A stretch of DNA of 64,000 nucleotides from Balanoglossus misakiensis. Taxonomy: Eukaryota > Animalia > Hemichordata. The position numbers were made by a program, and so were the translations under genes. Positions 18,001-63,800 of the stretch are shown in pieces. The first letter of the stretch is position 1, and each line of letters begins with the position of its first letter. The notes beneath the pieces are model-generated. The model saw only the letters and a program-made list of their open reading frames with translations. It was not told where the DNA came from and made no database searches. The stretch lies in assembly GCA_040954595.2 (NCBI GenBank), contig CM082579.2, positions 62,001 through 126,000 on the forward strand. The letters are read 5' to 3'.

Positions 18001-19686
18001 ACAAGAAATCATCTACCAATATCCTGTCAGCAGTCTCCCAGGTTTTAGCAATCTTTAAAAAAAAATAAAAGAGACATTTCACCCTCTCCAACAGACAGCA
18101 AAGTTGCACTGTATACCTTATTATGGTCGACAACATAGGCATATGGATCAGGAAACTAAAATTATAATTCCTGTTCCTATGCCAGACTGTTTTGTTGTGT
18201 GACCATAAGAATCTAGTATTACGTCACCAGATCTATGCAAACAGAACTTGTGTAAAAAACATTGAAAGTAAATGCAAATGAATACATTTTCATAAACTCC
18301 TTGAAGTAGTCCTTCCATCATGATCAAGTTACTTCAATTGACATGAAAAGATAAAATAAAAGAGACATTTCACCCTCTCCAACAGACAGCAAAGTTGCAC
18401 TGTATACCTTATTATGGCCGACAACATAGGCATATGGATCAGGAAACTAAAATTATAATTCCTGTTCCTATGCCAGACTGTTTTGTTGTGTGACCATAAG
18501 AATCTAGTATTACGTCACCAGATCTATGCAAACAGAACTTGTGTTTAAAACATTGAAAGTAAATGCAAATGAATACATTTTCATTCACTCCTTGAAGTAG
18601 TCCTTCCATCATGATCAAGTTACTTCAATTGACATGAAAAGATAAAATGGAGTACATGAGTAGAGGAAAAGATTCAATTGTACATACTTCAAAGGATTTC
18701 TGCCAGACAGCACAACACTTGTTGGTAACAGATTTCACCAGAATGAGGACATCTTGAGAAACAAGAACACAGTTGATTTCACAGAGGTCGGAAAATGGGA
18801 GAGGACAACATTTTGATAATTGCCCATCTGTAAACTGCAGCAGCTGACCTTGTGTTGTACCAACAATTGTCACATTTTTAGCATTCTCTGTATGTGTGTA
18901 TTGGTCCATGTGGTTATTTCCAGATTTACATACATTCAGACATGATACAATATCTGCATATGCATGTGGAACAAAATCTGTTCCGTTCAAGTAAGGGTTA
19001 CAGCCATCTTGTCCCTGATCACCCATTGAATTGATGTTTATAACAGTCCATTCATGGCCCCAAATACTCTTTTTTGTTGATCTGGATATTGCTTCTTCTG
19101 TATCCATGGTATTTGATTCCCTGGCATCTCTTGCTCCCATGACAACAAGCTGACCACTTGTAACCATGGCAGAGAAGAATGAAAAAGGTCTAGGCAAGAG
19201 GAATTTGTTAATGTACATCACTCCATCTTGAGTACAGGATGATGTATAATATAGTCTTGTGCCATGAGTCCAACAAACCAAAGGTCCATCACAAATCTGA
19301 AGGCCTTTTCCTAATTTCTCTGTGCATCTGAATTTTCCAACAGGCACAAATCTCTTTCTTTCAAATGATATCAACAGTAACAAATAAACTTGCTGATTTA
19401 TACTCTCTACATCCCCAGTAACTCTGCATTTCATTGCTTTAGTTAGCACACATGGTACCCTAAGTCCTGTCTGATTTTCTACAACGGTTCTACATGAGAT
19501 CAACTTCAGGTTCACATTTGGCAGATTCGACGTTAGTCTAATATCTTCTCTTTCTCGGAACTCTCTGAGATTCTTGTCATAGTTAAAGGAAGATGCTAAG
19601 ATTTCTCCTGTTGCTGTTGTGGAAATCTTCACGACACCACCGTTGTACGCCAGCAGGTCAAAGTCTTCTTCTCTGCCTACAGCCAT
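15012..19686 (-). CDS. FANCB: Fanconi anemia group B protein, 8 coding exons, ~883 aa
   Basis: Exons 19686-18688, 18052-17894, 17657-17568, 17277-17143, 16964-16810, 16587-16151, 15841-15604, 15450-15012; phase-consistent (2652 nt). N-terminal LLAYNGGV (human LLCYNGEV), ILVDDFLCYGSDQILLL (human LIDDFIGSGTEQVLLL), WQHIIEDKWVIGV; large first coding exon as in vertebrates. Confidence 0.85.
18062..18648. repeat. ~291-bp near-perfect tandem duplication in FANCB intron 1
   Basis: GAGACATTTCACCCTCTCC at 18071 and 18362; the copies differ at only a few positions (ggtcga/ggccga, gtaaaa/gtttaa, cataaact/cattcact). Confidence 0.9.
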
Positions 19687-19699
19687 GTCACTTTCTTCA

Positions 19700-19870
19700 T
19701 AGGTTATTTTTTCCGAATCAAATTATTTCGATTTCGTTTTAGCAATATCGCGCACACAGGCTAGACTTACGCTCCTGCATGGTCGAACTTTGACCCCAGT
19801 CAGTCAGTGCGCCCCCTGTAGTTGACCAGGTGATGATAGCTTGCCCCTCCAGAGGGCGCCGTCAATGACC
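19700..19870 (-). promoter_or_regulatory. Probable FANCB promoter with two CTCF-like motifs
   Basis: GC/CpG-rich patch directly upstream of the ATG; GCGCCCCCTGTAGT (19809-19822, motif on the minus strand) and CCTCCAGAGGGCGC (19846-19859). Confidence 0.45.
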
Positions 19871-29047: not shown

Positions 29048-29165
29048 CTCATTTGTAGCTGTGCACTGCTGAGGTCAGGCTCAGGTCACGCACATACTGT
29101 CCCTAAACGCACGAGGGCGCTCTATATGCACCTGCCCCCAACCCGGACCCCGCCCCTCCATGGCT
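29048..29165 (-). promoter_or_regulatory. Probable MOSPD2 promoter / 5' UTR
   Basis: GC box CCCGCCCC at ~29148-29156, CpG-rich, directly upstream of the start gagATGGCG. Confidence 0.5.
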
Positions 29166-32100
29166 CATATCAGTCCCCACCGCAGTACTTGGACCGTAAG
29201 CATAGTCTATGGCCAAATACATTGAAAGTGACATCAAATCGAGTCCAGCAATAGTTATCATAAAAGGGTTAAAGCGAATCACTAAATCCAAGAATGTATG
29301 AAAAATGTCAATTATAATGTGGTGGTACTGGTACATGTACGCACCAGGTGTCCGGTATTGTATAAAGGGGTGGGCCATTTGTTATGGGGGGGGGGGGTCT
29401 TTGTGATTTCAAAACAGATCCTTGAAGAATGTGTGCAAAAAAAAGTTGTCAGAAGTCATCAAGTTCAAAAAAACATAATTATACCCAGATCCGTTGAGGG
29501 CGCAACAGTGTACAACATGCAAAGAGGAGTACCCGAGTGTTAGGCGTCCGACTGATTTTGCAGATTCGCTCTACATGGAGTCCATTAATTCAATTTTAGT
29601 AAAGTCCACTCTTTAATAGTCGATTTATATGGAAAGTTCATGAATAAATGGTAGAAAGCACCTCTGGGACGAATTTGAAAACCTCTGGCATTCTTTAAAA
29701 TAAAGTCATGTTCAAATTATATACTCTACTGCTTGTTAATAATATTCATTTTAACATTTGCTGCCACTGAATATGCTAGGTTCTGCCATACTGTATGTAT
29801 TATTTTGTCTGAAAAAAGAATCAAGCTTTGTCAATTTATCAATAGGGGAAGAGATGAAGCACACGAAAATGCATACAAACATCCACATGTCAATATATGC
29901 ACTGAAAACAATATCACAATTACAACAAAACCATTTGTGTACATGGCTTGAAAAATAAATCATTTTTTTATTTCTGAATCACTCTAAAATTTCCAATTCT
30001 AATTCAATTCAACTACAAATTTATGACATCTTTGCAACACAATCGCTATGTAAATTGTCTCCAGCTTTACAAAACAAACCATGATTATCTAATTGAACTC
30101 TCAAGACATATGTGGTATATTTGGTATATCCAACAATTATATGCACTGATCAAGTATGTGGAACTATAGAATAGAATCTACTCATCAACAAGATGGTGGA
30201 ACAATCAAGTGTATCATCAAATGCAGCACGTTTCATGTCATATTTTGGAGCACTCCATGGCTGTATTTATTACTTACAGAAAGATAATGATAAAAGGTTG
30301 TTTGGAACTACAAAAGTACTTTTCTACCCATATAGTATTAAAGTCACAAATCAAAAATGAGATAGCCTAATTCAAGTGCCACTGTAGTCACTTTTTCAAG
30401 GCAACTCTGCTGATAAATTCCTATTGCTGTTTAAAAACAGCACCTCATGGAAAGCTTGTTACAGGGCACCATATGAAACACTTTTTTCTACATGTTGTCC
30501 ACGGTGGAGGTTATGGGTATGTGATGTGAATCTACTGAACTGCAGAATGCACCCAGAGTACCTACTAGTTTCCAAATTTAATGCCTTATGGAATAATAAA
30601 ACATGACAATCATTTTTTTAAATTTTGATTTGATATCAGTATAAACCACATTTGCTAAATACATTTATGTTTCAGGAATTTGGCACCAGGTTTAATGTTA
30701 GTTTATTACCAAGATTATACATAACTTTTGTACCCTTTGCCATAGTGTCTGAGACATATATTAATGTGAGACAAGGGTCAGTAGAGTTGACTCGACGAAA
30801 TGAATATGGGGAAAATGTTAATGTTTCTAGCTTTTCGAGTAAAAATTTGCATGCTGCATTCACAAGTCACAAAGCCAGTATCACATCAACATACCATTAC
30901 CAATTATTAACGTTAGCAAGTTTATGTTGCATTAAGATCTTGGAGAATCTTTTGACAATGCATTAGTTGATTAGCATGATGTTCATACTAAAATGCTTAC
31001 ATGTCACAGATAGTTTCTCAAGCAATGCTGAATTGAATATGTTCCACCACTTTGCAGAGCAGGAAAATCAAAACACATCACAATTATCTTAAAACATCAG
31101 GTACAGAAAAGTTACCTCGACATGTTGGTAAAACATAGCATCAGAATTTTACAGAAAAACATTTCCAAGCTTTTCCAAGTGATTGTACTGAAACAGATTC
31201 CTTCTTTTTAAAAAGCAGCTGCTATAGTTACAATTTTAAAATGTTTCTATTTGTGCAATCAGAAAAAAATGGCAAAGTTTTGAATTTGCGTTTTTAAACA
31301 GAACAGAGGGCAAAAACACTCTACATCACTTTTCAAATGGCTTCAGCTTTATTATCAAGGAAATTTACTTGAACATATTGGATGATACAACATTGCAGTG
31401 TTATTAATCACTGCAATATCTGACATGTAACAAGGTCCTTGGAAACCATCAAACTAATACACAAGCACCATAAAGTAAACCTCAGTCCACTACATGGTCA
31501 AGTATTGTAAGGCCCCACATTTCTTTTTTTCTATACATTTTATATAAACTACAACACTTCCTATGCCTTTGTTTATTTTCTTCTCTTGGTAAATTTTGTA
31601 TGACAATGATGATGGGAATTTGATAACTAAAGTGGTTTGGGGTGAGTGACTCGACTCTGGTGCTCTCCAGGAGTGTGGTACAAATGTAGTTCACTTCATT
31701 TGTCATTTCTGGAAACTTTAATACTTCTGTAAATATAAAACAATTAAAGATAAGTTTTGTTTCTCACTGTTGATATTGCCATTCTGTAACAATACAATTT
31801 TAACTGTTTCTCTTTGAGAACATGTTTAAAGTGAATTTCCATGACTGGGTTACACTGAGTGCAATTTATCAAAAATAGACTATCACAGTATACAGCCATG
31901 ATACAGTCAGAATGTTTTACAAAACAACAAACTATCCTTAAACATTCATAATCTCAAACTAACTTCGTTTAAAATTTTGTTTTGATTTACATGATCATGT
32001 TGAAATTTACATAGAGCAGAAAACCCCAAATGAAAAGTGCAAAACTTTACACAGCTCTATTGATGAATGGATTGTTTAAAACAATCAGAGGCAAAGTGCA

Positions 32101-33858: not shown

Positions 33859-36800
33859 TTAGCATGAAGCATCTTGATGAGGAGGTTCATCCTTCTTTTT
33901 AGGTGTGCTAGTCATTTGGGAAGTGATTTTCTCAATTTCCTTGTCATCTGGAGAGCAGGGTTTTGCTTCAATGTACCAGTCATGCATGGACAATGCCAGA
34001 GAGTGGGAATGCATGTCAGGTGGTGCAGACCTACGCTTGGGATTGTCACGTGCATAGATTCCAGAACTGCTGCCAGTGGGCGCCATTTCTCCTGGTGTTG
34101 GTGTCTCATTTTTCCAAAATGGTGTGTTGAACAAATAGAATGGTTTTGTACTGGTTGTCAGTTTTTCTTTGATGCGTTCTTTTCTTTTTCCAGCTGTAGT
34201 GACACTAATGTACTCTTCAAAGCTCTCTTCCAGTGTCTTAAGCCGTGGACGATGTGAACCGTATATTGACATGGCTGATGTATCTGAGTGACGGTGTGGA
34301 TTGGATGCAGAGGCACTTCTTCTGAGAGGGGGTCGACGCTTGGCTTCTGCAGCTGCCTCCTGTTCACCAGGAAAACCTTGTACTGACTGTGATTGCTTTG
34401 AATTAAACAGCTTCCTTTTCTCAATAGCTTCACCATGAGATGGTGATGTTGGTGCTGAATTCACATCTCTTGAGACGTGAGCTTTATCTTTTTCTGTGTG
34501 TTGTGATGCTGATGATGTACTGTTTCTCCTGGCTGATTCATTCATTGCTGATGTAGTGTTCACAGTTTTCTCCTTGCTTTGTTCCTCATTTTCTTGTTCA
34601 TCCTGTGATGGATTCTGTGGTATGCTGCTCCCGACTGAACTTCGCCTCTCGCTGCTTGATCCAATAGTGGCATCCACACTACTACTTCTCTCTCTGGATG
34701 CCCCGTATTTCTCATCCATGCCCTCTACGATATCAGAAATCTGAACACCACTCTTTGTGGCCTGGTTGGAATCTTCATTGTTCCCACCTTCCTGTTCACT
34801 GGATCCTTTGGAACTGGTGGACATTTGACTTCCTGTACGTCTGCTGCCTGGAATACTCTCCTGACTGCTATCCAGGAATTTGAAGAGTTTATCAACTTCT
34901 CTCCCTTTTCTCTCAGCAGTGGAATACAGTTTCTCATCAGCCAGCAACTTGGTTCTTGCAGGCGTACTGTTCTGCAGCATTTCATTTTCACTAATATGCA
35001 ATTCTTCACTAACTAAATCTTCTGCCATCACATCTCTCCTGTTGCTGAAACCATTTTCCTCATCATGATCCTCTTTTCTTGTTGGACAAGTATTGTCCTC
35101 ATCTTTATCAATCAGTGGAATATCTTCATCAGCTATATCCAGGCTCTCGTTACTCCTTGTGAACTTGGGACGCATTTTTGACTTTGACTTGCTCTTTCTG
35201 CTCTCAACTGGAGTCATCAGTGGTGACATTTCATTGTCTGCATCTTCACCTTTCTTGGTTAGACTTTCTCTGCTGAATGATAGCTTACTTTTGAGTTTTT
35301 GCAGCTCCTCCAGGAATTGGGAGTTATTTTTGTCATCTGCAAACTGAGCTGAGAGATCTGACTTGTCCTGAATATTCTGTAAACTCTCGGCGCTGGAAAA
35401 GTCACTGATATACGACATAGTATACTGAGTGTTGCTGACTTTCCCACTTGGTTTCCTTGCTTTGCCTCTTCCCTTGCTTGGCAGAAGATCAGATTCTATG
35501 TCAAAATCGGATTTCTTCACCTTGACACTTTCTTGGGGTTTGTCTTCTTTGGTTTGTTTTGCTGCAAGGGAGTCTTTGGCACTGAAGTTGACATTATTGT
35601 GTGCCGGGAAAGGCTCCATTTCAAGGTCGTCAGACTCATCTGAAAGACTCTTCACAACAACTGATTTTCCAGGAATCTTTTTCTTTACTTCGTCTTTATC
35701 ACTCACTCTTGCACCATTCTCCTTCTTGGTTTCATCTTTCTGGGTCCCTTTTGTCCCCAATGTCTTACACTGTAACTTGTCTATCTGTACATTGACATGA
35801 TGCACATGTTGACTGTTGCCGCTATCAAAGGAGTGTCCATTCTGGCTGAAAGGCCCATCAGGTGGATTAGCTGTTGGCGACTCATCAAGCTTTGGTGATC
35901 CCCTGGCTACTGATGTGTTCCCCAACACCCCACTGATATGCCTCAGCTCTTCATAGCTCAGATTCAGAAAGTTATCTGGACCAGGAACCCTTAGATGTCC
36001 ATTCTCCATCTCTTCCATCTCTTGTAGCGTTGTTGCCGTGGGCAAGACACTTCCATCGCAGAAATCCCCACATCTCATTGTTTCCTGTTCTCTCATCCGC
36101 ATCACCATGGCACGAAATAGTTGCCAGTCTCCAAAGGTCATACCCAGTACCTTCTTCAACTCATCCAGGTCGCATTGCAGCAAGACATGCCCATTGATGT
36201 TGTTCTCAGCTACTTTAGCCTGGTACTTGGGAATCATGTGTGGATCTAAGCCTTCAAGTGATAGAAGACGATCACATACATCCTTGATTGCCATTCCATC
36301 AGATCCCCCATCACTGGTTGGACTCAACAATTCATTTCCGATAAGTGGTTGCTAAAAAAGACAAAGTTGATTGTAATGAGCAATTACTCAAAGTCAATTA
36401 AGAGATTAATACTTTTAATGACCTTTACCGTATTTCTCAATGGTTATTTAAAGTAAAAAAATGTACCCTCTTGGTAACTGACTTTGTTGTGCTGTACACT
36501 GCATGCAAACACCTTGTGGTATAATCGTTGTCAGACTGCTTCTATCTTACCACTTATAGCGTCTTACAAATATTTTTAACTAGTATTAGATCATTAATTA
36601 AATGTCCTTTTTTCAAATGGTTTTACTTTGAATTCAATGAATCATAGATTACTACCATCAATTCTTACCTGTGGTGTATATGCACTCAAGTGAGTTCCAC
36701 CTGGTCCAGGAAAACTCATCCTCTTCCAGCCACCACGAGTGAAATTATTACTGTAAGCCCCTCCATACCAGGATCCATGGGGGGACACGACACCACCACC

Positions 36801-39800
36801 ACCCCCTCCACCGCCCCCTGGGGTATAGGGGTTTGCTAGTAAAACACTTCCATCATGAGTCTGATGTAAATCTATATAAAATATAACAAAATATCGAAAA
36901 ATATGTCATCAGAATGTTGTTGTTTTTTCTTTGATCAGAAGATGTCTATTTGATATAATACATGAGAAGACAGACAACATCTGATCCCTGGAGATAAAAA
37001 GGTCTTTTTATGCTCAAAATAATATTTTTGAAAGCAGAAGATTATCTTCCCACACAAACATGGATAGTTCAAATGTCATACAGAAGCTTAAATTCTTTGT
37101 GATATATACTTCATTATCTTCCAAAATTGATTCCTCTGTGACTGCTGAAAAGTTCATATTAGTCTGTCTGGATGAGATTACCAGCTAATAGAGTGATTCT
37201 GGAACTTTGGCATTTTCATTGGAATTTCCGGTATGTCCTTACAAGAACTGCAATTAAACTGCTGTTCAATCTCATCAAGTGACGCCTACTCTATGTACAA
37301 AAAATCATTCTAGCTTTCAAATCTTTTCCAGTGTTTAATTCCACCCAGTTATCGATTTACTGATTATTTAGCAAGGAATCTGACGACAGTATACATCAAC
37401 GAATTACCTACTCATTAGAACAGATTTGTTCCTTAATGTCATAAGAGTTTACTTGTATACTTTGATAGACCTGAAACTGAGTCATGTATATTGGACATAT
37501 AGTTGTCAAATATGTCATACTTCCCTTTGTCTAAGCTCTCACATTTATAAAAAGACAGCAATCACCATCAAGTACCTTTCTCATGACAGCTAAAGCGCAT
37601 TTGCGAGAGACTAAATCATGCATTATGCTAACAATCTTTGATGCATAGTTTAATACCTCCTCAGTCTGTACATTTCATTATACAGTCTCTGTTCACCTAT
37701 TGCTAGTTAAGATGGCATGTCCAATTCTTTTCAAACACCCACCAATATAGGACTGATGTTCACCAGGGTTTTGCCATTGTACATGCACACAGCCAAACCA
37801 GAAAAAAAACTAACTCTAATTGACTTCTGAAGAAAACACGAACTCATAGCAAGAATGCAGTGGGGAGGTCTCAAGAGAATGGTTTTCTTGAGGGCATTTT
37901 CACCTTTCATTGCATCCTACTTCACTTTGACAATTAAGCTGGTTGACTTAGCTCCCAGCAATCCCACTACTTTCTGGAAAATCTGAAATGAAAGCGCGTC
38001 TTTCAAGAATGGTTGTACAAAATCACATCTGAATGCTGGGTAATTTAGCCACATACTTCCTGAATTCTACTGGAGATGCTGCTGATAGCAATCAGGATTT
38101 AACATCTGATTTGATGCCAAGATGCCAATCTATATGATGGCACACATCTTCTACTATGGTTTCACTCTCTTGGGGTCAAAACTTATCAGTTAGACTAAAG
38201 CATGACATGATGTTAGCAGCTTCAGCATTCAAGAGTAATTGCCCCCAAAATTACCACCTATAATGCTCAGATTACCAAGCACAAGACTTTCAGCCAGTCT
38301 CCAAATATAAATTGTTGATTTTGGTCACAAGACGAACTGGATACTGGTCTGAGAAGTTCAGTTATTCACATGGAGTCACTCTGTTTTCAGAGTATTTGAC
38401 TTTCATGGTCAAAAGTTACAGATCTAAAGTACAGCCTTAAAAATGGTGAAAGTGAGGTCTAAAAATGGGGGGGGGGATCTTTTAACTTCAACATCGTTAT
38501 AATTGCATCATGAATATGTTGCTATTGCCCAAAGGTCAGGCAATCACATCTGATGACATCATAAATCCACATCCAATGGCAGTATCAATTAAGCAAGTGG
38601 TCAATACACTATTTCTGAAGACACAAATATCAACCGATTTATACAATTTAAAATACATGTAGATATTCTTGAGAAAAAAATATTGTAATTAATGCCATAT
38701 TTTCTCTCAATATTACCAATATTAAAATAAGGGGTACTTCCAAACAGGCAAGTTAATTTACAGCCCTGGCAGAATCCTTGTCAAATTGAGCAGACGATAC
38801 AACTCTGATGATAAGAGAGAGAGAGAGACTGGTACTGCCGTAGGGAGCAATCAAGATGAAATCATAGCAACGTCTCAATGGCAGACAAAACTCAATTTCC
38901 TAGCTGGAAAATTGGAAGTGTTTGCGGCAAATTACAGAACTGAAATCATGCTGATTGCATCAGTCCTTTGATTGACTATTTGCTGATGATTGCTTGCAGA
39001 CATGAGAAGGAAAAGGAAAAATCGAGAAAGAAGGAGTGATTTTGTGCTGATAAAGAGATCATAAATTTCCCCAAATAGCCAGGTAGACTCACAAGGTGTA
39101 TTCACAAGCTGTGAACCATTACAAAACATTTTTGAGTGTGGTATGGTAAGTATTTTGAAAGTTGACATGAATTTATTTTCTAAAAGTGTCAGATACCAGC
39201 ATTTTGCTTAATTGACAAAGCTTTTTTTTATCAATTGAAGGTGCTTCACCCAAGGAAAGGTCAGTTTTATGGAGGCATATCCAATCATGAGAAAGTATCT
39301 CTATAATGTGTGAACTATGAAGTAATAACTAATCATTGAATGTTTTGTCTGGGTTCAATATGAAGGAATAAAGAAAAATTATCACAGTGCAAAAATGTGG
39401 GAATAAATAGAGAACCCAGTTTGATTTCATATGGAAACATATGCCACAAGGTGTTACAAAACACTGTAATGCACTCAAAGTGCAATTTTTGCTTCATAGA
39501 GAAGGTCTATTTGAATACAGAAACAGCTAGATGTGCTACTTTATTTTCAAAGAAACTGGAAACAGTTGACAATGGCAGTAACATATGTTAGTAGCATATC
39601 TCAAGGCAATTTACCATTCACATTAGTTCTCACTTACACGCAAATCTACATTTAAAGCCAGACTTCATGTCTCCTAGACATTATCCTCAAAAATAGGCAT
39701 ACCTATGAAACATTAAACTCTATCACCCGGGATTCCCATTAAGAAACAAAATCTCTCAGTTGGTACTCAAGCATTCACCATTCCCTGGTGGTTCAACTCA

Positions 39801-42800
39801 TTTTTCTGTCAGATTTCATTCAATTTCATCACACAGCTTCAATATTAGCATGAGTGCCCTATTACCCATTGATTCATCAAAACACAGCAGTAACCTGTAA
39901 ATGTTTTCAGATCATGAATAACATTTACAATACACAAATCTGTATTTCTTGACTTAGCTTGTGACATTGACAATAACAGTCACATCACATGTTCACACTT
40001 AAACCAAATTTGTTGGGTATTGGATTTTGGAGGGTGGGGTGGGGGTGGGGTTAACTATGGAGAGAACCATGACAAAACCTACTACAAATATCAATCTCAG
40101 AGAAGAGCTTGTGTCTATGGCATTAACTGGTTAAATGAAGTGACATAGAGTTTTTACTTGTGGCGGTAAACCTGCTTGCTTGACATCACTTCCACGTCAT
40201 GGACATCATATATCAAGACGGTTCAAGATGGATGAGATTGAACTTGCCTAATGGCAAACCTGTCATGTGCAGTCACAAAAAAACTTTTAGTTTCACAAAC
40301 GGGTACTCAATTTTCCTGAACAAGAAGAAATTACACCATGATTTGCCTTTAGCTGATTAATCTGCAGGACAAATTGCCTGTATGCTATCAAACCCTTGGC
40401 CAAGATTATCACTAATTACATCGCCCCAGGGAGCTGATACATAATATAGCAGAAATAACTCGAGTTGACTGAGAAGTTGAAATTGAATTGTTGGTAATGA
40501 AAACACTTTTCATCATTTGTTTTTATCCTTAGGGTTAACAATCATGTATCTGCCCTTGTTACATGTGTTATGATGCCACAAAAAATCTCATCCACTGTAT
40601 ATATTGTTTCCCATTTAGTCCGCTATGTTTTAGGTGTCCATTATAGCACAGATATTGTTATGAACACAATCTATCTATACTTTAAATGGTAAAAAATCTT
40701 TCTCTTAAAATGACATAATGTACTAGTGCACCAGAAGATTTGTAAGCTCTACACAATAACTTTTTGATCAAACAATTATCTTGTGCAATATAAAAGTCGT
40801 ATAAATGACACACAACTGAATAATACAATTTTTGCACTATAACATTCTGTCTGGGCAGTCTTACGTGTAGACCTAGTCACTGTAGTCATTAGTGATCAAT
40901 CTGATGACATGTATGTATGTCAGATGATAGAGACATCATAGGATTTAAGCTTAGTCTTTGCTATTTCTTCAGTGTTGTACAGCACTGAGCTTGGCAGAGA
41001 ATCATTCCCAAGCTCACTCTAATCTTGTTTCAAGTGTGTTTGATCTGCTACTTTTAGTTTTTTTTTTTTTTTTTTTTTTTTTTTGGGGGGGGGGGGGGAA
41101 TCTTAACAAAATCAAAAGATCCTTTCATTAGAAGATTACAGTGGGGGGATTTGGATTTTAGTTTCCACTACAGCATTTCTGTAAGCCATATGAAAAAGAC
41201 AATGTGCAGATGGACTTATAAACACAAAAAGTGTGTTTATACATGTACTTCTCTTTGATTATCATTATAAACTATTTCTTCCAGCAAGGAGGAAGTAGCT
41301 AATGATCACTTATAAATGCAGTGTGGGTATTAAGAATTTTCAATTTGGTAGATGTATAGACTGCCATTTAATGTACAGACAACACTGGCATTTCCTCTCA
41401 TCTCCTTATAACTAATATAAGGTTACAGTGGCAGGAGAATGTGCTCATTAAGATGATATGAAGAAAGCGATACAACTTTGTGTTGGCATGCAAGAACAGT
41501 ATCGATTGGCAATCCCTAGAAAACAACTCCTAGTCCTATCTGATAATGTTTTAAAGAAAAACTTATATTTGTAATGATTAGTATTTTCCATCAGTGCCAT
41601 GCAAAATTACAAGATGCTGAGTTGTACACATGTTCACTGACAGATAAAAAACAGAATTGTTGAACTTTCCGTGGTATTCTTGTCATAATTCAAACTTAAA
41701 TAACATCTAAGAGACAAGGTAGCTAAAACAATTAATACATTTAATATACTTTGCATAGGGTGTGTTATCGAAGGCCAACAAATGATGCTGTCAATGCCTA
41801 GACATTTTACTCTACAGCTCTTATCATAAGTCTTTCCTTGAATTTCCTGTGTCTTCATTTGTATGCTACACCTATGGTCATGTCTTGTCTGCTTGGCTGA
41901 TTTCAAACTCCTTCAGAATGCCTTTGCTCACAGCCAGTGAGTACTGATATTGACAAGAGGTGAAAACTCTCACTATTCTCTATAAAACTCAGCTATCTTC
42001 AATCCACACTCTACATGTCAGACAATTTTGTCATCACAGACAAGCACACAGCTGATGATTTTCATAATTCCTGATATCTTAATTTTGCTTTCCCTGTCGT
42101 TTGATTATGCATTCAATTTGTATATTCATATTCTGGGGCAAATTTAACAGTGCATTATGCTCTATTTAACCATAAATTAAAACAGGCTCTCAACCATGTG
42201 CAGACCCATGGCTGCCTGGGCTCTGACATACAGCTTATGCAAATACACCAAGCCCTGACCTCTCACCCATGTACACGTATGGCTGTATTTTGTGCAATTA
42301 CCATAAAGGTGCGTTTGTCTGAATCTTGAACTGAAGACACTGCTGACATACAGGGACATTTTGATGTTACTATTGGGACATTGATATTTCCTTTTCCAAG
42401 AAATGTACACACACAACACTGATTACTGAAACATGTCTATGTCAACCATGTCTCCATTTCTTCTCAAGAGAATACTGATGTACAAGTAAAACACACAAAA
42501 AAGAGAAATCTGAGAGAAAGCGGTCTCCTGAAAGGGCAGAACAGTACAAACATTATCCTCATGTCTGCATCTCAATGTTTGATGCACTGGAAAATGTATA
42601 CATGCGAAGGCCACTAGTTAAGTTTAGAGTGCTCATCATATCAAATGTAAAATGACAATTTGTCAAATTGAAATTCCTTTTATGGGGCAATGTCAATCTT
42701 TTGCCTATCGTGATTGGCCAAATGTTTTCTTGATGCAATTCACACTGTCTCCAGGCTAGGTCATATACATTTGCATACAAGTCAACAGGTACGTGTATGC

Positions 42801-45800: not shown

Positions 45801-48800
45801 GAAAAAGTCAGACTGCCCTGTAACGCAGATCTTCAGACATTCAGCAAACCATTACTTATTATTACTTTTTTTCAAGATAGCGCTTGGTATATATTGAGTA
45901 TGAAATGTTTTGTTAACACATCACACGCAATCAACTCATAGTCCTAAAAATACACCAAAGTTGTTTTTTTCAACTACATGTACATGTACCAGTGTATACC
46001 TGTACAAATATCTCATAAAACATTACCTCTCAGTAATCATTCCTATGAGACACATAAATCAAGTATGTTTCTTCTCTGACATTACTTCATAAATGGAACT
46101 GGAAGTGATGTCACTTTATATGCAGTGTAATTACCTGCACTTTAGGTATATTTACTGAACACTGTCTTATTACAATTTTTTTTTGTACAACTCAAAACCA
46201 ATCCTTGACTTAAATTTTTTTTTGCACCTGGTGAAAACAGCAAAGGGGATATGTTCCATTTAGAGACCTCCATTCAGTGTTGCAGAACATGAAGTAAAGT
46301 GGTTTGTCTCATTTTTTTGGTTCTGGTTTCCAATTCATGGGGTGAATCCAACACGATTTGCATTAAAATGAAAGGGACCACTGCTCCGTGAAATTCCCAC
46401 ACAGGGTGTTTTAATTCAATGACTGCAGCTGGCCTCAGTTAGTGTACCATAAACATCTAACTGCAGATGTCAGCATTTTGCAAGTGTGTCAGGACACAAA
46501 ACTCTGTAATGTATCATGACAAAAGTGTAGCTCACCAACTTATCACACAATAACTATTTAATATTAGTATTAAAATCACAGACCATCTCCTACTATGACT
46601 AAATTGCTCCTAATATCAAAAGAATTCAACACGATGTGAAAACATGACTCTTCTGCCAAATTAAACTAGAGTGACATATATAGTCTTGTAATTTAATCAG
46701 AAATGAAATAGATGCTTCGGGTAGAGTCGGAGGTTTACTTTATCAATGACCTTATAACATTCATCTTGATATTATAATTGCATTGACCTGAGTGGGTCAT
46801 CTGTGTATGCCAATCTACAGACCAAGATACTTCCTGTCTTTCTACATAAAGATTTCCAGTAATCAATTCTTGACTCGAAATTTTGCTCAATTAATTGAGT
46901 CTGTACTTGATAGGCATTGATTAGCTTAACTATGAATCATAATAATAACCAACATGGTAAAATGAAATCATCGTTTTTGTATAAAGGTCATAAAATTATA
47001 TGGCAGCCACTCTAATCACCTGGTTTCTACTGAAGTGAACGCTATCCCTCTGACATCTCATCCTCCGTGTTTGAAATTACATCATCCATACATGCGAATC
47101 AAATCCTGACAATAATAAATTTATGGCGATAAATGAAGTGGTGAGCTTGTTGTTGAAGTTGAAAAGTTATAATTAAATACTGAAGTTTACATTTGCTAAT
47201 GTTAAGTATACACCATGTAATCAAAGATAACACTTGTCAAAATTTATTGCACTCCAGCAGTGTGAGCATTTAAGAAAATCAGTGACTACATGGACTTGCA
47301 CACCTGGTACAGATACCCACTGTTTTAATATCATTAGGTATAAACTCATGCTGACAGCTAAATTTCCAATATGACTAATTCATCGAAATAGAACTGACAG
47401 ATTTACGCGACAATCATTAACCAACAGCCACACACCAAATTGCTCATTTCACAATCCCGACACCTCAGACGGCATAATTCTCTGTAATCATTGTAAAAAT
47501 TCACCTGAATACCAGAGATGGAGCTGTTCCATACCCAAAGCACTGACTCTAAACATCAGACCATCCAAAACATAGCATACTGAGTAAAATCTTTTTTCTC
47601 CTATCTTGGCCAGAAAATACAAAATGTTCCTGGTTATTCAAGTGACCCATTTGATATGCCAGGCCTTCTACGTTCTACTGCACTTAAGACTAGATGTATT
47701 TATATGCAAAGCTGATTGGATTTGTGAGTTCAGTGTATTGTTTTGTTTTGTTTTGTCTGCAGAGGAATTCAGGTCCAACGCATATAAGATTCACCTTGGA
47801 ACTAAAAGTAAGCCATGGCACACACTGTAACGGTATGCAAAGAACTGCCCAGTTTTTATATTTGCCCGGGGCAAACCTGCTATTAACTAACTCAATATTG
47901 GGGAGCAAAGAGTATAATGAGACATCTAGATAAAATTAAGCTCCTTCTATTTAGCTTGAGAGCCTCCATTAATATCTGCAGACTTCACCTCATGACCTTT
48001 ACTCTGAAGGGCTGACTGATTCAAATTGTCTTTCAAAATAAAACATTACGCAAACATCTGCAGAGAACAATCATCATCATGTCTGCGAAAATCCCAGAGT
48101 CCTTTCTGCATAGGAACTGAGATGTTTATCTTATTAATACTATAGTGCAGTGTTATGATTGGACAACAATACTCTGTCTGCCAAGGTTTGTAATTTGGTC
48201 AAAGCCCCAGTTACACTGAATAATATCTGAGAGAAGAAACTAAACTGTGACTAGTGTAATAAAGTGAAATAATTTGTGTAAGTAGAAAATTGATAGATAC
48301 CTTTAGCCCATGATGGAGGGCGGTTCCTTCGGGCTTGGGGCAATTTCTTTAGCTCCCCGTACTTGTTATTCATATCATCAACCACAAAATATTGCGTGTC
48401 TCGAAAACGCAATTTGTTGTGTAGCACAAACATTTTATCCTTCCATGAGTGGAATTTGACTATCACAGCTCGCGTGTATCCATCTTTGGGTTTACCTACA
48501 CGATAGACACATTCAATTGTCTTAGGTCCAATGACCATTCCTAAATGATGACTTAGAATACTGCCAACTTTGGGTTCATCTTCCTGGTGGTCCTCTTCAA
48601 TTCCAAAAATCCTGATGTTGTTACACCGAGATAAACTGTCTAATACCTCTGATTGTCCATTCACCATTTTCTTCAACTCTGCATTCTCTTTCTTCAATTG
48701 ATACACCTCTTCCTCCAGTGTTTTTTGTATGTCCTGAAATTGTCCAATTTCTGTCTGCTGGCTTTCCAGTCGACTACTCAACTCAATTATATTCTCTTTG

Positions 48801-51800
48801 CTAGACTGCACCATCTCCAACACTTTAGACATGTTCATGGACAAAGAATTCAATTCTTCAGCTGAAGCTGATTTCTTGTGTTTTGACTTGAATGGCCCTG
48901 GATTTTGCTCCACATCGCCAGCACACAACAAGATCAGCAGGAGAGCCATCACCAGACACAGGTTATGTTTGTTGTCTATGAAAAGCATCAATGAGGTCAT
49001 CAGATTGCCAAATACCAGAACAGAGTCATATCCTGCCCGCTGATAAAATATTTGCCTCACCTGAATTACACATGAATTGTTCTCTTCATGATCAAATACA
49101 AGGGAAGTCATTGTCCTCCAATCAGATGAGAAACCTCCAGCGGGATCTGTTAGCCGTAGACTGAGGTACTGTTTGTGCAACATTTCTGCACCAATACTTT
49201 GAATGTCAACCTGAGACATGTTTAAATATCACAGAAAAAAGTGTGTAACATGTACTACTATAAGGCACTCAAACACAACGCATGTATCCAATATCTTCAT
49301 ACAGGCATATTGTATACCACCTGTTAATTACCAGTAATTGATCATGGCTATCTCTGTAACATCAATTTTCAGACTCCTCTTTTCATCTCCAGCTGTGTTG
49401 CAGCAGTTGACAGATCACGAGTCTTTTCAACCTGTAAAAATATACCTGCAGTGTACGCTTTTGGCAGACCGACGATGATATCAGGTGTACGCTGTGTATA
49501 GATCATACAAACTGCATGTGTCTGCATACCACAGTCGATTGTTACTTCATTTCGAATTACCGCTGGTGGCTTACATAACCATCCTCTACAATGCTGGTTG
49601 AAACAGTAGAGTCTCAAACATCTATTTTATCACAAGGTGACAAAGTAGCCAGTCAGAAAATGCCAAGGCCGCCAGTTCTCTGTTAAAAGTGAACTTTGGC
49701 AGTACGTTGAAAGAATCCCTAGGTCTGTCCGCATTTTTAAACTGGCTACTCGCTTTGGCGGGCCAACTTTAAACACACACCTGTGACAAACATTGATAAC
49801 GTTCTCATAATATTCACTAGCCAGCTAAGGGTGCTTGACATATAGTCAGCTTGCACTGGTTAATAATAAGACAACACCATGACTCAATTTGTTTAATATT
49901 AACAGATTCGGCTAGTGTGATAAAGTATTCTGCAATACAATCTTGGACTACACAAAAACAGACACACATTGACTAAATCCATGAAAGAATGCCCACATAA
50001 TTATAAAGTCCCTGTGCATTGTTTCTCTTGTGCTTGGAAATTAAGTTGTATTTGCATATTGATTGTTAACTACTATAGAGGCCGGTGCCCTCTGCCTGTC
50101 TCTCTTTCTCTCTCTCTGTCTGCCTGTCTCTGTCATATTCATCAATATCACAAAGAAGTGAACAACTCTTGTGTGGCTTCATAGAATATGGGTCTGTCTA
50201 TCCAGCGGCTGTATATAGGAACCTTATATGAATTGACTTAGGAAACAAATTAATTTGTAATTCATGAAGGATCCAGGCTGTAACTCAATCACTAAATTTT
50301 CTTTCTTTCTCTGAAGATATAGTGACTAGTGTGCTGTGTTGTGTTGTGTTGTGCACTTCAGTGTTGCGTTGAATGGCATTGCACAACAGCAGATTACCTT
50401 ACATAAAATTAAATTCTCTAAAGCATAATTTATGAAGGTAATTGGGACTGTAAATTGTCATGTCTCCGTACACTAATCATGATCTCCTTACACGAGCACT
50501 GTACAAGTGTACATTTTTGCCAGCAAATTATATTACTGTCCCTTGAAATGTTTATAGTTTCCTGATAAATATTAATCTCCATTCAATGGCATGCTTTGAT
50601 TTAATATCAAAGTTTGCCTTTGATATTCCATTGAAAAACCTAATCATTTTATACTACATAATGCACTGCTTAAATTAGCTTATAGAATCAGAAAGACTAT
50701 TCATATATCCGACTAAATGAAATTATTTCAGTTAACAAACATGTTTATTTCTATTTTGGAGGAAATATCATTCTCTGATGAATTATTGCTTGGTATTACA
50801 TGTCATTAGCATTCACGAAACCTGTCAGGTATTTATCAGAAAACCAGGAAAGATTCACACATAAAATCCCATGTAATATTACTAATCAAGAAAATAGAAT
50901 CATTACAATACAGCAATTTGGCAATACATTGAATAAAGGTCAATGGAGGATGTAGAAGTGTCACTCTGGGTCAAAGTGCATGAGAAAATTATGTGGGAAC
51001 TGGTAATACATGCAGGTTGATGTAAATTTATAACCTGCAGCTTTCTTTCTCACATAACTCACACTAACATTGAGGAACTATTACCTAATTGATATTTTGA
51101 TGATTTTATAAGTGCTTGGTACTGTGACATGAATGAATGAATGAATGAATGAATGAATGAATGAATGAATGAATGAATGAATGAATGAATGAATGAATGA
51201 ATGAATGAATGAATGAATGAACTGTTGCCTTATTGCATTCTGTGTACTTTATAGGTGGGGGATTCACCTCCCTCAAGTGCCATTTTGTCAGGTAATCAGG
51301 TTATGTATCTAACTTTTGAATTGCAAACAAGCAAGACAAAAGTACACAACAATTACATGCGAGAACTGCTGAATGTCAGGGGTAAATTGTCATAAAATGG
51401 TAAAACATAGAAATATACCAGGTTCACATCAATTTACAATTTATGCCATCCCTACACAGGTGTAAGTTTTAAGTCGGCTATTAACCAATTTGGACACTGG
51501 ACCAGAGAGCCGGACTTATTTAGTCAAGGGATTGAAGGGGGAGGGGAGGGGGGGGGGGATGTGAGATCTGGCCTAACACATCATGATCAGTCAGCGTTAA
51601 ACAGTAGTGTGAACTCATTTATACTGTCCCTAGTCACAGCTGGAGCAAAGAAAAGACTACTGTTAATTACACATGACCTTAGTCAGGTACCAACTTCACC
51701 TCTGTATTAAAGAGCAGAAAAACATTAAGAGAAGATTTTTAGCTGTGACCTGGTCCTAGATACATTTTATGTAACGTAAACGATACTATAACAAGGTGGT

Positions 51801-57800: not shown

Positions 57801-60800
57801 CTTGTTTTTCATCAGAATTATCTCTTGGGTGAGAAAGGAAACTGCTTTCTGAATATGCATGATTGATGAGGGTTCACAATTTCTACAGTGTTTAAAAGTG
57901 AATACACCAGGACATCATATGTTGATCCAGAGACATTTAGATGCAATCTGCGATCATCATCTTTCATTTTTGAGTAGCAAGGCCATGACATTACAAAGAT
58001 ATGATTGAACATTTCAAGGAAACGTTTAAAATGAGATCATTATCTGAGAATGCTCTCTCTCTTTTCTGCGTATTCACCAATATTAAAATTGCCAATACCT
58101 ATCCTTTATTCTCTTCTTCCAACAGAGACAAATCTGAATTTTTCCTCTTTTCCTGAACTCACAATTGTTTACTGCTTCAATCATTGATTGTGGCATGGCT
58201 ATTTACTGCAGTTTGTAGCCTGAGGCATTCTCTGAGAAAGCTTGCCAGTAATTCACTGGCCTTTCAAACCTTACTTTGCTATATCGATTGTGATAGAAAC
58301 TTTCATATCAAAGGTTCAATTTTTGAATGGAATTATTCCACAGGAGCTTTTTGTTAAAATATTTCTAATCACATAAAAACTGGATCGATGCACAATACAA
58401 TACAGGATTAACAATGCACGTCACAGACATTAATCTTGGGAAATTCATTTTTTATCCACATATATTTACACAACAAGACACAAACAAAACAAAAAAGACA
58501 GACAGACAGACAGACAGACAGACAGGATGAATTCCTATAGATGGAAAGATCTCAACAGACACAAACACTGAATAAACACACACACAAAGCTTTCATTTCT
58601 ATTTGCCAAAAGTAAATCAACTAAATGTTTCACTATCTCTGCATTTCACAACCTCATGGATAGCTCTCTGAATTTTTTTCAGATATTTAATTTAATGATA
58701 CAGTCATCTATATGTGTGTTTATGATTATTGATTTTAAAATATATGAATTGATTTACATGTAACCTTTATCTTAATCATACTGTAATATTAGATAAGTAA
58801 GGGCCATGAACACGACTTCTTAGAATTAATTACTATTCCATGGTCCTCACAAGTGTGATGTACTGGTATGTCTGTTTTCTTCTCATTCCTGGTATAGAAA
58901 CTGTATTCTTTCCTTCCATTGTAAGATGCATAATCACCTGATGTGGTTGACTACAGCAGAATGGAAGCATTTTTTATAAATGTCTCAACCTAAGCTACTG
59001 AACTCAACTGGTGAATCTCTGATCCATTCACTACCAATATGATTTCTACATGTTCATTGTCACATTAATTACCTACTTTGACTTTGAAAGCATGAGGGTA
59101 ATTTTTCAGATGAACCCAGGCCAAAAGGAAATTAAAAGAGAGATAATACAATTTTAATGTTTTCACTGATGGAATTACATTGGATTGTTCTCATAGCTGC
59201 TACTAAGCTATGACCTACAGCCTACATAAACACAAAATTAAAACCAACATCCTTGGGATCCATGAAATAAACAAATGTATTGTTGCCATTTGGTAAAAAT
59301 GTGTAGTCATACATCATATTGTTGCTTATTTGTGTAGTTCAGTCAGTTCCCTAAAATCGCAGATGGCTTTAGCATGGAGTGCAGGGCAGAATGTATTTCT
59401 TATTTCTGTAAAACTTTGGAAGAGGAGATTCAAAATCATTTCATGTGAGACAGTTGGATTGTAATTCAAGCCAAAGAGAGCAAGAGTTTGTGCAGTTCAT
59501 GTATAGAAAAAAAAATTGTTTACTGATTTTTATTTCACCATAGCATGATGTTTTAGCAGTAACTGTTTCATCGTATATATATTTTTTGAAATCACTTAGT
59601 CACCACAGAATCTTCTGTTGAATGTGAAATGCCATGGCACGCCACAAAGCTGTCAGTAGACTGGTTCCTTAAGCCATGTTCACAGATCCATAATTCATGA
59701 TGGTGATTTGATTAGGTTAGCTTAGCTGGAAAAGAATTGCCTAGCACCAAATCTGCATTTATGATGTTCTCCAAGATGTGTCTGATAAGGCAAAAACAAC
59801 ATTTTGCATTTTACCCTAGAAACATCACGGCATACACAACTCGGTGAAAATTCTCATAATTTTGCCACAGCTTTGATTTAAAAATTGCACTTTCAAACCA
59901 TTTACAATTTCAAGAAAAATCTGGATTATTTCCATTTACAGTCTGATATAAATCCTAAAAGTGATCTTTTACTCTTCCATGCCACAGGCAAATATTTGTA
60001 AAAAAAGATCTAATGTAACATGCAACGATGGCAGATTTCAGCTAAATGCACTCACGACTGCTCCAGGCCAAAGTAATACAACTAAATGAGTAGATATCAA
60101 ATGTTATTAGGTGTCCTGTCTGAGCAATCAGTACAGGCGTTAATAAATTTTGCTGTCCCATCTGTATGCTAAATTGGTTGTGTCAATGCTATTAGGTCTT
60201 TGAAGGGTATGTTATAGTTTATACCCAGCGCTGTCCAGCATTCTCCAATCTACAGCAGACATTTCCTGATTTTGTAACGTCAGTGCTGTATAAATAAATT
60301 GCATATGACATGTGCAGTGACCCATTTGGTGTACTGGTGGACTGCATAGCGCCATCTATAACCATACATGGTAACCCTTTTGTTTTTATGATCTACCAAG
60401 TGCTCTGCTCACATATTCCACTGTGTGCCTATGCAAAAGGTTGATAACAGATTCATACCAGCAGATGCTAAGAGCATGAAATATATAGTCATAACTGAAA
60501 GAAGTAATATATACAGTGTACAACTATCGCAACAAAATATTTGGATGAGTAAGACCTGGTAAAATACACAACACTAAACTAGAATATCACAGAGAACAGA
60601 AAAACAGAAAGATGGTAACACTACATATGTCATTGGCAAGCACATATGACACACACACACAACAAACATCCGACTGATGTCCTACCTGTAATCATTTTCC
60701 GTAACCATGGATCCAAGTTAACAGTGCAGGGTAACAGCTTTCTCATGTCTCCAACTCTGAGTATTGGAAAGCCTTTGGTGAGATAGACATGAAACCCACG

Positions 60801-63800
60801 TACATCAGCATCAATTTCTAACAATGGTTCTATATCTTTAGTAGGGGGGATTTTATCTGCAACTCTGTAACATATGCAAAAATAAATAAAAATGTACATG
60901 TCACATCATACTTGGATGTCATACAAATGTAACTGATTTGACATTGAACTATTTGTCACTCACTTTTCATAGATACTTTTGAGAGATTGATGATCTTCCA
61001 GAGTATTTTCATGCTCTTCAAAATAATAAATAAGCCACGATGTTCTGTAAGGCCACTGTTCTGTCATGTTGATCCAGGCAGCCAAAGTGTGCCAGCTGAA
61101 CTCTATATTGTGTGCTCTAAGGAGTCGGCCTGAAATAAAAATCAAGTTAATCTTTGTGATTGTGTACAATATGTTAAATAATATGTCTCTGCAATGATTA
61201 TACTTTGCAGAAGGATTTTATCTGCTTCAACTTTAAACTTTCAGAATTTATCACGCAGGACATGCTTCAAGAATTCTAACTGCACTTTGGTGAATGCAAC
61301 ACACAGAGTGAAAGTTGATTCAGAAGGAAGATGAGTCCCAGCCACCAAGCCACCCAATGGTGAATGTCTCACAAAAGTGAAAATGATCAAACATACACAC
61401 CTGTAATAGACACAATATTAAGCAATCTTCTCATTCCCCTTGGATTCAGGTCAACAAACTGCTCACTCTTGGCCAAAATCTTGGTCAAGTCAAACATGGT
61501 TGAGACCTGACGACTGTATGTTCTTTCCTTGAGGAGTTTCCGAGCTGTTTCAGTCCTCACTTGTTGTCGATTATGTACTGAGGTGAGTGATGAATGCCTG
61601 GATGTAGCTCTAGATAAAGGTCTGTTTGCATCTACTGTTGTTCCTACAACCTGCAAAGATAAAAAAATGATAATCTTTGTCATGACTACGTTCAAACACA
61701 TGACCACAAAAAATTCAGAAATATCAATCCACTGTAAAGGTGCAGAAGTCATGATCAATACAGTTACATGTACAAAGCTTGTCACCTTTTACTAACTTTT
61801 TTCATGAATTTATCTTTGTTAATAATACAAAGTTATTTGTCGTGTTTGGCTTCTGGACACATGCTGACACTTCAGATGACCGTAAATCATTTCCATCCTC
61901 CATCTGAATGATGGAATGATTTTGGGATTATAGGTAAATCCCACAAGAGGAAATCATCACAGTAGAAACAAAGCTAGGTTCAGAAATAATGATGACTGGA
62001 GTAGGCCTATACCAGAAATTCACGCATGATCCAAATTTCTATTCAACATGTGTATGATTATGTTAACACTGATATAACCATTCTTTCAAATAAAGAAGGA
62101 GTCAAGTTCTTCCAATGACAAAACATCCGTACCTCTCCAACATGGTTGCCAATCATTGCAGGAGAATGATCTTCAAAGTCATCATCTTCTTCCATTTTAC
62201 GTACACCACTTTCAAGATAGAATGGTAACTGTACTATATTTTTCAAGTAGTCATATCCGCTTATGTTGGAGTCTCTAAAGACACTGTCAAAATTTATCTC
62301 TATGGCCTTAATAATGATATGTGGATCAATAGCAAGGACAGTTATGAATGGACTCTGGTATCCTGAAAACAGAATATTTACTGTCTCCAAAACTTGCAGG
62401 ACTTTGGCTTGCTCGCAGCTGTCCAGCCCATCAACAATGACCACCAGCCTTGTCTGCATTTTGGCAAAAGCATCAATGCACTTCACCATCTCACCCATGA
62501 GTTCCACTTCACGTTTTAACACACGCATAAAGCCTTCAAGACGCAACTGGTTAAGATTCTTGGCTGCCTTGAGGACTCGCTTCTTTTGAGATCTGACCAG
62601 AGAATACAAGATCTGACCCAGCGTCTTGATATTGGTGAGTAACACAATGCCAACTACTGACAGTAATCCTATGAGTACACCATTGATGACATGGTTATCA
62701 TTGATGCCTTTGTTTATTCCAATGAGAATAAGACCAGTAATTATACATAGGATAACAGTCAACACTACAATAAATACTGGTAGGCAGCATATTCTTCGGA
62801 AATATCCTGTATGAACACCTAAAAAATGAAGATATCCTGTATTATTACCAGGAAAACAGAAATCTCCTGTTTGATTATTGCATGCCAAAAAGGACAAAAA
62901 CAGTGACATATACTGCATTCTGGAAATGTATTGGGCAATTCTCTCTGTCTTTCTCCCTCCCTCCCTCCCCCCTCTCACCTTGCTCAGCTTTACTTTTGAA
63001 AACCCTGTACAGCCTGGTTACCAGGAAACCAAATTCATCCTCTGTAGCATCACATAGAGCACCTATCATCCTAGCCAATGAGACCTCTCCACCAACACTG
63101 GTCAGCCTGCTATAGTCTGTAAATAAAAATCTTTAAAAAAAACACAAGAAAGTCTTCATATATATGGACATGTGTTCATTTGCAAGGGTTAAAATACAAT
63201 ATGATAATTATTGTTTAAGCAGTGAATTTAGTCTTACCGTATTGGCAGTGCACGAGTTGTGCTTGAAGGCAGTGTTGGGGGGTTGCAAAAACACACTTTA
63301 AGCAGCAAGGCTAAGTAACCTAACTGTTTGGCCAGGATGGTGCTAAAAGATCGTAGTGTCCTCCATTGTCTCTTCTTGGATGCAAAATGTAAAATAACTG
63401 CCAGTACAGGAAAACAGAGAAAGGGAATGGGTTATTTCTAACACTTTTACCCCTTGGCAGACATTTATGTATATTGTGGACTGATCAACAGTCCGGGTAT
63501 GGTAAACCCTTTTATTTTCCTTTTTGCAGGAAGCAGACTGATCAGCTACATACATAAACAAGGTAGATGAACTAATTCCATAGTTACTGTATTTCTCCAC
63601 AGTAAATGCCCATATAGCTAGCTACAAGGTTCAGTAGAGCACTTACCAAGCAACAACAGCAATATGGCAGCTGAAGTGATACCAAGGGCTACTCCTAATA
63701 CGTAACCTACAGTGAGTCCCAAAGTGAGACCAACAATGATACCAAATAAGATTGCAATAATGGCTGATAACCAGGAGAATCTGTACAATGGTTCTACATC

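Follow-up and report, generated by a model that had tools for sequence, protein, structure and literature searches.

The window analysed here is a stretch of 64,000 nucleotides (nt) from the acorn worm Balanoglossus misakiensis (contig CM082579.2), in which an open reading frame (ORF) of 322 amino acids (aa) lies within an intron of KIDINS220. The ORF runs from ATG to stop on the minus strand (49219-48251), which is also the strand of the host gene, and the intron around it spans 60685-36872 (23,814 nt). On the same strand, Pfam searches place a KAP NTPase exon upstream of the intron and a KIDINS220 SAM-like exon downstream. Judged from its sequence and that of its relatives, the ORF is real and derived from a long interspersed nuclear element (LINE), but most likely an exon of KIDINS220 rather than a free-standing gene. 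The features of the locus are as follows.

33859-36351, minus strand: KIDINS220 last exon, SAM-like domain and long tail, 830 aa (PF23307, E 1.2e-30)
36669-36871, minus strand: KIDINS220 downstream exon, Gly/Pro-rich linker, phase 1 to phase 0
48251-48300, minus strand: splice donor and probable intronic read-through to the stop (similarity to Saccoglossus kowalevskii ends here)
48301-48975, minus strand: likely ORF1-derived exon, 675 nt, phase 1 at both ends (3' end from the S. kowalevskii join, 5' acceptor putative)
48302-48373, minus strand: basic stub of 24 residues replacing the ORF1p C-terminal domain (relatives are longer here)
48374-48628, minus strand: L1-ORF1p-type RRM, residues 198-282 (profile and structural match to 2yko)
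48629-48847, minus strand: coiled coil, residues 125-197 (structure model and a/d register)
48848-48895, minus strand: basic linker behind the predicted skip site, residues 109-124 (identity to S. kowalevskii)
48893-48952, minus strand: 2A-like 20-mer, residues 90-109, leucine-rich helix and GDVEQNPG/P core (from sequence; core kept in S. kowalevskii)
48976-49060, minus strand: candidate 85-nt intron inside the 322-aa ORF (donor and acceptor motifs)
49061-49219, minus strand: 5' part of the open frame, a non-conserved leader or untranslated exon, with a candidate acceptor before 49210
49401-49800, minus strand: weak CpG peak, candidate internal promoter (13 CpG per 400 nt; intron mean 3.2)
60686-60864, minus strand: KIDINS220 upstream exon, 3' end phase 1 (tblastn with the Glandiceps protein)

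An earlier, sequence-only reading of this DNA described the ORF as the only long one of the 23.8-kb intron, lying on the host strand and resembling the host in base composition, and these observations hold. The second-longest stop-free stretch in the intron is 132 codons, 322 codons were reached in none of 200 third-order Markov simulations of the intron (simulated maximum 232), and the GC content of the ORF is 40.6%, compared with 39.6-44.4% for host exons. GC content by codon position is likewise similar in the ORF (0.48/0.31/0.43) and the KAP exon (0.47/0.32/0.40). The further description of a solitary intact gene is not borne out, as conservation goes no further than a splice donor at 48300 that precedes the last 16 residues; it is also weakened by the absence of significant conservation in the first 82 codons and by the apparent 85-nt intron inside the frame.

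The key evidence for an exon is a single protein. A phmmer search of 1.84 billion representative proteins returned 1617 matches at E ≤ 0.001, of which only one is close (P0002; E 7.9e-121, 81% identity), the next real matches having 23-41% identity. This protein is XP_006820261.1, a 1074-aa S. kowalevskii model filed in RefSeq under the plain KIDINS220 name ('KIDINS220-like isoform X1'), and it consists of a 2A-ORF1 module at the start, followed by the KIDINS220 linker, the SAM domain and the tail. Aligned to the window it gives three collinear blocks (49018-48290, 36872-36678 and 36351-33862), and similarity in the first block stops at Lys306, at the GT donor 48300. The donor is in phase 1, as is the acceptor of the exon at 36871. 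In the Glandiceps talaboti KIDINS220 model (XP_077984408.1) the upstream exon is joined directly to exon 36871, a form that skips the module. The sequence-only reading had the usual ORF1 C-terminal domain replaced by an unrelated tail; the loss of the domain stands, whereas the tail, because similarity to S. kowalevskii ends at a donor whose phase fits exon 36871, appears to be read-through into the intron past 48300.

These findings resemble the ORF1p fusions of the Lyosin type known from vertebrates: an ORF1 exon of more than 200 codons is located within a host intron, its GT donor keeps the frame of the host exons, and one relative's predicted protein, that of S. kowalevskii, has the same exon in the same host gene. 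A conserved stop of its own and an unfused orthologue, as for a stand-alone gene like L1TD1, were not found: conservation goes no further than the donor, and the model of the orthologue is itself a fusion. The sequence evidence makes it very probable that the exon is spliced into KIDINS220 and is under selection. Word-based protein searches returned none of 650 candidates near the ORF length, P0002 alone among 1064 at 565-2000 aa, and 6 of 3042 at 1881-5000 aa, where the module is absent from the one acorn-worm protein examined; a metagenome scan gave 147 pattern matches, none of which was confirmed.

The origin of the module was established from the best 150 of the 1617 phmmer matches, from which a low-complexity repeat protein (P0003) was dropped; 67 of the 148 listed matches other than P0002 carry a 2A-like motif. 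Residues 83-306 were aligned with 132 of the 150 listed matches, the 18 long or multi-stretch ones being omitted, and the resulting profile matches human LINE-1 ORF1p (2yko) with E 6.5e-16. As a single sequence the module matches only generic coiled coils in Pfam and PDB searches, with no match to PF02994. In a structure model of mean pLDDT 86.5 the coiled coil forms a single long helix (pLDDT >90), and its best heptad register places hydrophobic residues at 16 of 21 a/d positions. The top Foldseek match of the model is human ORF1p, and the best structural match in VIA-align is 2yko_B (Z 11.0, root mean square deviation 2.6, 122 residues), stopping at ORF1p residue 261. Profile, model and structural matches thus bear out the coiled coil and L1-ORF1-type RRM first noticed in the letters alone. 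The C-terminal domain is gone: 24 residues separate the conserved Asp282 from the donor, compared with a median of 56 in 130 relatives among the listed matches, 114 of which have 40 or more residues after this position. The net charge of the RRM is +2, compared with a median of +6 in these relatives. The module is a LINE ORF1 fragment comprising the 2A motif, coiled coil and RRM and lacking the C-terminal domain. Because type II ORF1 is common to L1, CR1, L2 and R1 elements (PMC4120745), the donor clade cannot be named from ORF1 without ORF2. In the ESM Atlas the matches were unnamed eukaryotic clusters and, at 0.89-0.90, a Baculo_FP_2nd cluster, which is no more than a lead.

Nothing else of an element was detected around the module. 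None of 87 minus-strand intron fragments of at least 45 aa matched APE/RT Pfam families (4 gave unrelated, chance-level Pfam matches), and neither a 3' tail nor a target-site duplication was detected near the ORF, in agreement with the earlier observation that ORF2 remnant, tail and duplication are missing. Proteins fetched from relatives gave 160 tblastn matches inside the ORF and none at a second site in the 64-kb window. Contigs were taken from two DNA runs of one sample (X1 and X2), which may be the source of the window, some contigs having been filtered out; among 1.9 million run-X1 records a single contig aligns at 80% or more to 48100-49900, which is not a genome-wide count. Many near-identical copies, which would have spoken against domestication, are therefore seen neither in the run-X1 contigs nor in the window. 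The sole variant inside the ORF in the run contigs, at 48392, is silent. A loose contig end at 49093 in run X2 was discounted, as it starts at GATC and is probably a library ligation joint. An (ATGA)n array at 51129-51221 was considered as the tail of the module and rejected, as it sits on the 5' side of the ORF; it is a perfect (ATGA)23 microsatellite 1.9 kb away and could be the tail of another element. Unlike the module, a short interspersed repeat at 42068-42173 is found in several contigs of both runs at 85-90% identity with loose ends.

Downstream of the 2A motif the module matches S. kowalevskii at 171 of 198 residues (86%), with zero indels. Identity is complete in the basic linker (16 of 16), lower in the coiled coil (49 of 70, residues 125-194), and very high in the RRM (81 of 86, residues 195-280) and basic stub (25 of 26, residues 281-306). 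The last exon of KIDINS220 is 62.5% identical (457 of 731), significantly less than the module (Fisher p 2e-11), and residues 195-306 (106 of 112) exceed even the SAM region, taken as the first 100 residues of the last exon (86 of 100, p 0.036). An RRM more conserved than the host SAM region likely does something specific. Identity of the last exon is comparable among all three acorn worms (window-Saccoglossus 62.5%, window-Glandiceps 64.7%, Saccoglossus-Glandiceps 63.0%), and a host-protein tree with lamprey and fish outgroups did not resolve their branching. Saccoglossus DNA was compared over the 60-nt native 2A stretch (20 codons) in the supplement of PMC13405545, where an unlabelled row was taken as Saccoglossus by its identity to P0002 residues 33-52 and native coding sequences were used. 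Among these 20 codons, 13 encode residues identical in the two species, and 6 of the 13 carry silent differences (counted by eye), indicating that silent sites are heavily diverged. The protein identities and these silent changes are strong proxies for purifying selection.

The window and Saccoglossus share C199, C237 and Y239 where relatives have R, R and H, a combination found in none of 131 relatives among the listed matches, and a tree of 45 rows joins the two as sisters at a distance of 0.08, the nearest relative lying at 1.71. The shared derived residues and the tree point to a single insertion in an ancestor of both. The split of Ptychodera from Schizocardium is more than 370 million years old (PMC11175523); the exon may have an age of the same order and is probably older than Lyosin. 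Domestication of a LINE ORF1 is well supported by these comparisons because its conservation far exceeds that of the last exon of its host, with no second copy in the DNA contigs and the same host gene in a distant acorn worm. The sequence-only proposal of domestication is thus upheld for the ORF1, conserved and single in the contigs, though probably in the form of a fusion exon and not of a stand-alone gene.

The 5' end of the exon allows two arrangements. The donor at 49060 is the sole MAG/GTRAG donor on the sense strand of the intron, and 85 nt past it comes an acceptor at 48975, one of the 8 best of 749 YAG sites, with a zone of 55 nt free of AG. This suggests a small intron inside the ORF and a 675-nt exon, 48975-48301, in phase 1 at both ends. 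With the 85-nt intron removed, ATG 49073 would be in frame; ATG 48949 is an alternative. The exon is compatible in phase with a local first exon and with the upstream KIDINS220 donor 60686. The CpG peak at 49401-49800 has the highest count of the intron, at an observed/expected ratio of 0.71 compared with 1.2-1.7 in the strong islands of the window. A first exon, rather than only a cassette, takes the larger share of the probability given above to a spliced and selected exon, since the module stands at the start of the Saccoglossus model and the ORF1 exons of the vertebrate precedents come first or last. Homology of the leader to 48 element leaders was considered and rejected (best cases 0 and 1 of 200 shuffles, not significant over 48 tests). 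Within the candidate promoter region there is also a 20-nt inverted repeat (49644-49750, 85% complementary, 67 nt apart), and a word at about 49755-49765 is presumably E2F-like.

The 2A-like motif reads GDVEQNPGP at residues 101-109, a canonical D[V/I]ExNPGP core preceded by a hydrophobic helix with five leucines at 2A positions -19 to -10. Of the nine core residues, eight are identical in Saccoglossus, with four of those codons silently changed. A 2A before the ORF1p coiled coil has been described in ticks and limpet (PMC13405545) and in one sea-anemone L2A element (PMC3708506). In the screen reported in PMC13405545, which used 20-mers in human cells, a limit stated by its authors, all three library peptides with the LLCAGD[V/I]E core of this species were classed as skipping, two with reduced output; the B. 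misakiensis peptide is absent from that library. In the same source 70% of tested ORF1p-linked 2As lowered protein levels. Upstream context matters for skipping (PMC12846837), and unskipped 2As can serve as signal sequences, a role in which the 2As of sea-urchin NLR proteins double (PMC4981915). By its sequence, the B. misakiensis 2A would be somewhat more apt to skip than to fail; skipping is plausible here and doubtful in Saccoglossus, despite conservation of the core in both.

We favour, as the probable arrangement, an alternative first coding exon formed by the ORF1 fragment, whose donor at 48300 would join it to the final two exons of KIDINS220. Its LINE ORF1 origin, the loss of ORF2 and the C-terminal domain, the conservation and the in-phase donor and acceptor are established, and the splice from 48300 to exon 36871 is supported by one predicted gene model of another species. 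An internal promoter near 49.4-49.8 kb would drive a short transcript, from which a short hydrophobic leader would be made, with a virus-like 2A skip in at least part of events. The released protein is predicted to have ~1,096 aa (198 of ORF1, 68 of linker and 830 of SAM domain and tail) and, without the ankyrin, KAP NTPase and membrane parts, would be a soluble form of KIDINS220. ORF1p trimerises via its coiled coil, and its RNA binding needs both RRM and C-terminal domain (PMC12129022). By this analogy the coiled coil is predicted to trimerise, clustering three SAM domains and tails, and ordinary RNA-chaperone activity has probably been lost. Loss of the C-terminal domain and the RRM charge of +2 compared with +6 favour an oligomerising and localising role over RNA chaperoning, and the module would act as a handle for both. 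The invariant basic stretches flanking it may bind RNA or import factors. The C-terminal half of mammalian Kidins220 binds many partners (PMC4789535).

Several points weigh against this arrangement. The orthologue is a predicted gene model from one species, and among annotated proteins and metagenome contigs no exon-bearing isoform was found for Glandiceps or a third species. The Saccoglossus 2A 20-mer is listed as 'Nonskipping Only' in human cells (PMC13405545 supplement), and the pre-2A leaders of the window and Saccoglossus show no significant similarity, their score being reached by 691 of 3000 shuffles. The CpG signal is weak, a cassette exon would suit the acceptor at 48975 just as well, and codon usage of the ORF1-derived exon is indistinguishable from that of intron DNA. 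Finally, a broken Saccoglossus assembly could mimic the picture of a first exon.

It is possible, if not probable, that the fusion is genuine and the 2A no longer skips, the leader remaining as a signal or anchor or lowering protein output. The non-skipping Saccoglossus 20-mer, the signal function of the sea-urchin 2As and the reduced protein levels reported for most ORF1p-linked 2As are all consistent with this, but the core has been kept in both species under silent codon change, the three same-core peptides were classed as skipping, and the screen has the limit noted by its authors. More doubtful is that 48975-48301 is a cassette in the full-length KIDINS220 mRNA, where a 2A would split the protein into a membrane-bound ankyrin/KAP half and a soluble half of ORF1, SAM domain and tail. 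Its length of 675 nt, with phase 1 at both ends, keeps it in frame with donor 60686 and acceptor 36871, the strong acceptor at 48975 suits it, conservation begins only within this exon, and mammalian Kidins220 has a cassette region in exons 24-29 (PMC4470590), which may or may not fall in the same intron. A frame fit is, however, expected by chance one time in three, the strong local donor 85 nt before the acceptor suggests a local upstream exon, and the Saccoglossus model starts with the module under a displayed name not marked partial; moreover, each of the four vertebrate ORF1p fusions has its ORF1 exon in first or last place (PMC12129022), and the Saccoglossus 2A peptide did not skip. If the 2A skips, first-exon and cassette arrangements give the same downstream product of ~1,096 aa. 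That acorn worms cut KIDINS220 in two during translation, by cassette and working 2A together, and have kept this for more than 300 million years is improbable; were it true, a single choice of splicing would convert a membrane scaffold into two halves, one membrane-bound with the ankyrin and NTPase parts and the other soluble and trimeric with ORF1 and SAM, and ribosome skipping would have a natural use within a conserved animal gene.

The sequence-only reading had instead suggested convergence on L1TD1, that is, a nested stand-alone gene encoding a 322-aa RNA-binding protein, possibly in transposon control. The frame does extend without a stop for 85 codons before the candidate acceptor 48975 (chance ~0.004), an AATAAA lies at 47248, 1 kb past the stop, and a read-through form could coexist with the fusion. 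This gene is nevertheless unlikely: conservation stops at the donor, the Saccoglossus model runs on into KIDINS220, and the evidence leads to a Lyosin-like KIDINS220 fusion exon. Transposon control gains no support from a module whose C-terminal domain is cut off, whose RRM is less basic than in relatives and whose sequence is nearly frozen rather than fast-evolving; in addition, Lyosin and human L1TD1 failed to suppress L1 in reporter assays (PMC12129022). Least likely of all, and very improbable, is that the module is a neutral fossil, or an active LINE that inserted recently, and the Saccoglossus fusion an artefact of gene prediction. Gene predictors do join intronic ORFs to host exons, but here the module is 86% identical without indels while the host's last exons are 62.5% identical, derived residues are shared by both acorn worms, the donor falls at the same residue in both species, and no second copy, ORF2, tail or target-site duplication appears in the data searched.

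A KIDINS220 first exon of LINE origin would be of a kind already known. Lyosin (L1 ORF1p-MYL4, in reptiles), L1-RFX5, NUP42-L1 and USP4-L1 are ORF1p fusion isoforms of vertebrates (Kitao et al. 2025, PMC12129022), from a survey that covered vertebrate RefSeq only; Lyosin and L1-RFX5 carry the ORF1 part as their first exon, and L1 mobility was unchanged by Lyosin. As in fusions of the Lyosin type, an ORF1-derived exon lies in a host intron, keeps coiled coil and RRM and has an in-frame splice to host exons, and Lyosin likewise lacks the C-terminal domain and replaces the N-terminus of its host. Lyosin-type ORF1 exons are less constrained than the host exon (dN/dS, the ratio of nonsynonymous to synonymous substitution rates, 0.41-0.54 for Lyosin compared with <0.04), whereas the acorn-worm module outconserves the last exon of its host in protein identity, carries a 2A motif and also fits as a frame-neutral cassette. 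Mammalian L1TD1 is similarly a domesticated type II ORF1 without ORF2, but it is unfused to a host gene, under positive selection and repeatedly lost (PMC12129022); the acorn-worm module is likely a fusion exon with a nearly invariant RRM.

The order of 2A, coiled coil and RRM is that of the 2A-bearing type II ORF1p of invertebrate LINEs (ticks, limpet, L2A-1_NVe; PMC13405545, PMC3708506, PMC4120745), with which the RRM region shares 25-47% identity and all seven near-invariant residues of the alignment. The acorn-worm module differs from these in its truncated C-terminal domain, its lack of ORF2 and copies, and Arg-to-Cys changes at two family-conserved sites. Motifs resembling 2A occur in other cellular gene products, namely sea-urchin NLR proteins (PMC4981915) and teleost RapGEF and sponge ankyrin-like proteins (PMC13405545), but the acorn-worm 2A arrived with the ORF1 module, so that its retrotransposon origin is visible. 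No publication on a KIDINS220-ORF1 fusion was found in a search of mostly open literature that included 2A papers and supplements. What is new is the invertebrate deuterostome host, the much stronger conservation and the retained 2A. Domesticated LINE proteins are rare, and the ORF1p fusion exons described so far are all vertebrate and loosely constrained. With a host-gene 2A of visible origin, S. kowalevskii, a laboratory model whose RNA data are public, offers a test of whether animals make use of ribosome skipping in genes of their own.

Elsewhere in the window, all three acorn-worm KIDINS220 proteins end in Cys (DASC, DTHC and ETPC; 33859-33873, minus strand, in the window), whereas those of fish end in ESIL. 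Exon-like ORFs on the minus strand at 15012-19722 resemble what we take to be FANCB; Pfam gave no match for 18625-19722 or 15012-15470. A CpG island at 27201-29200 (observed/expected up to 1.7) probably holds the promoter of these ORFs, and a 247-codon stop-free frame within it (27748-28491, plus strand), without a Pfam match, is probably a by-product of high GC content. On the plus strand, an exon at 7044-7691 has a weak match to DUF719 (E 0.02) and presumably belongs to a FAM114-like gene.

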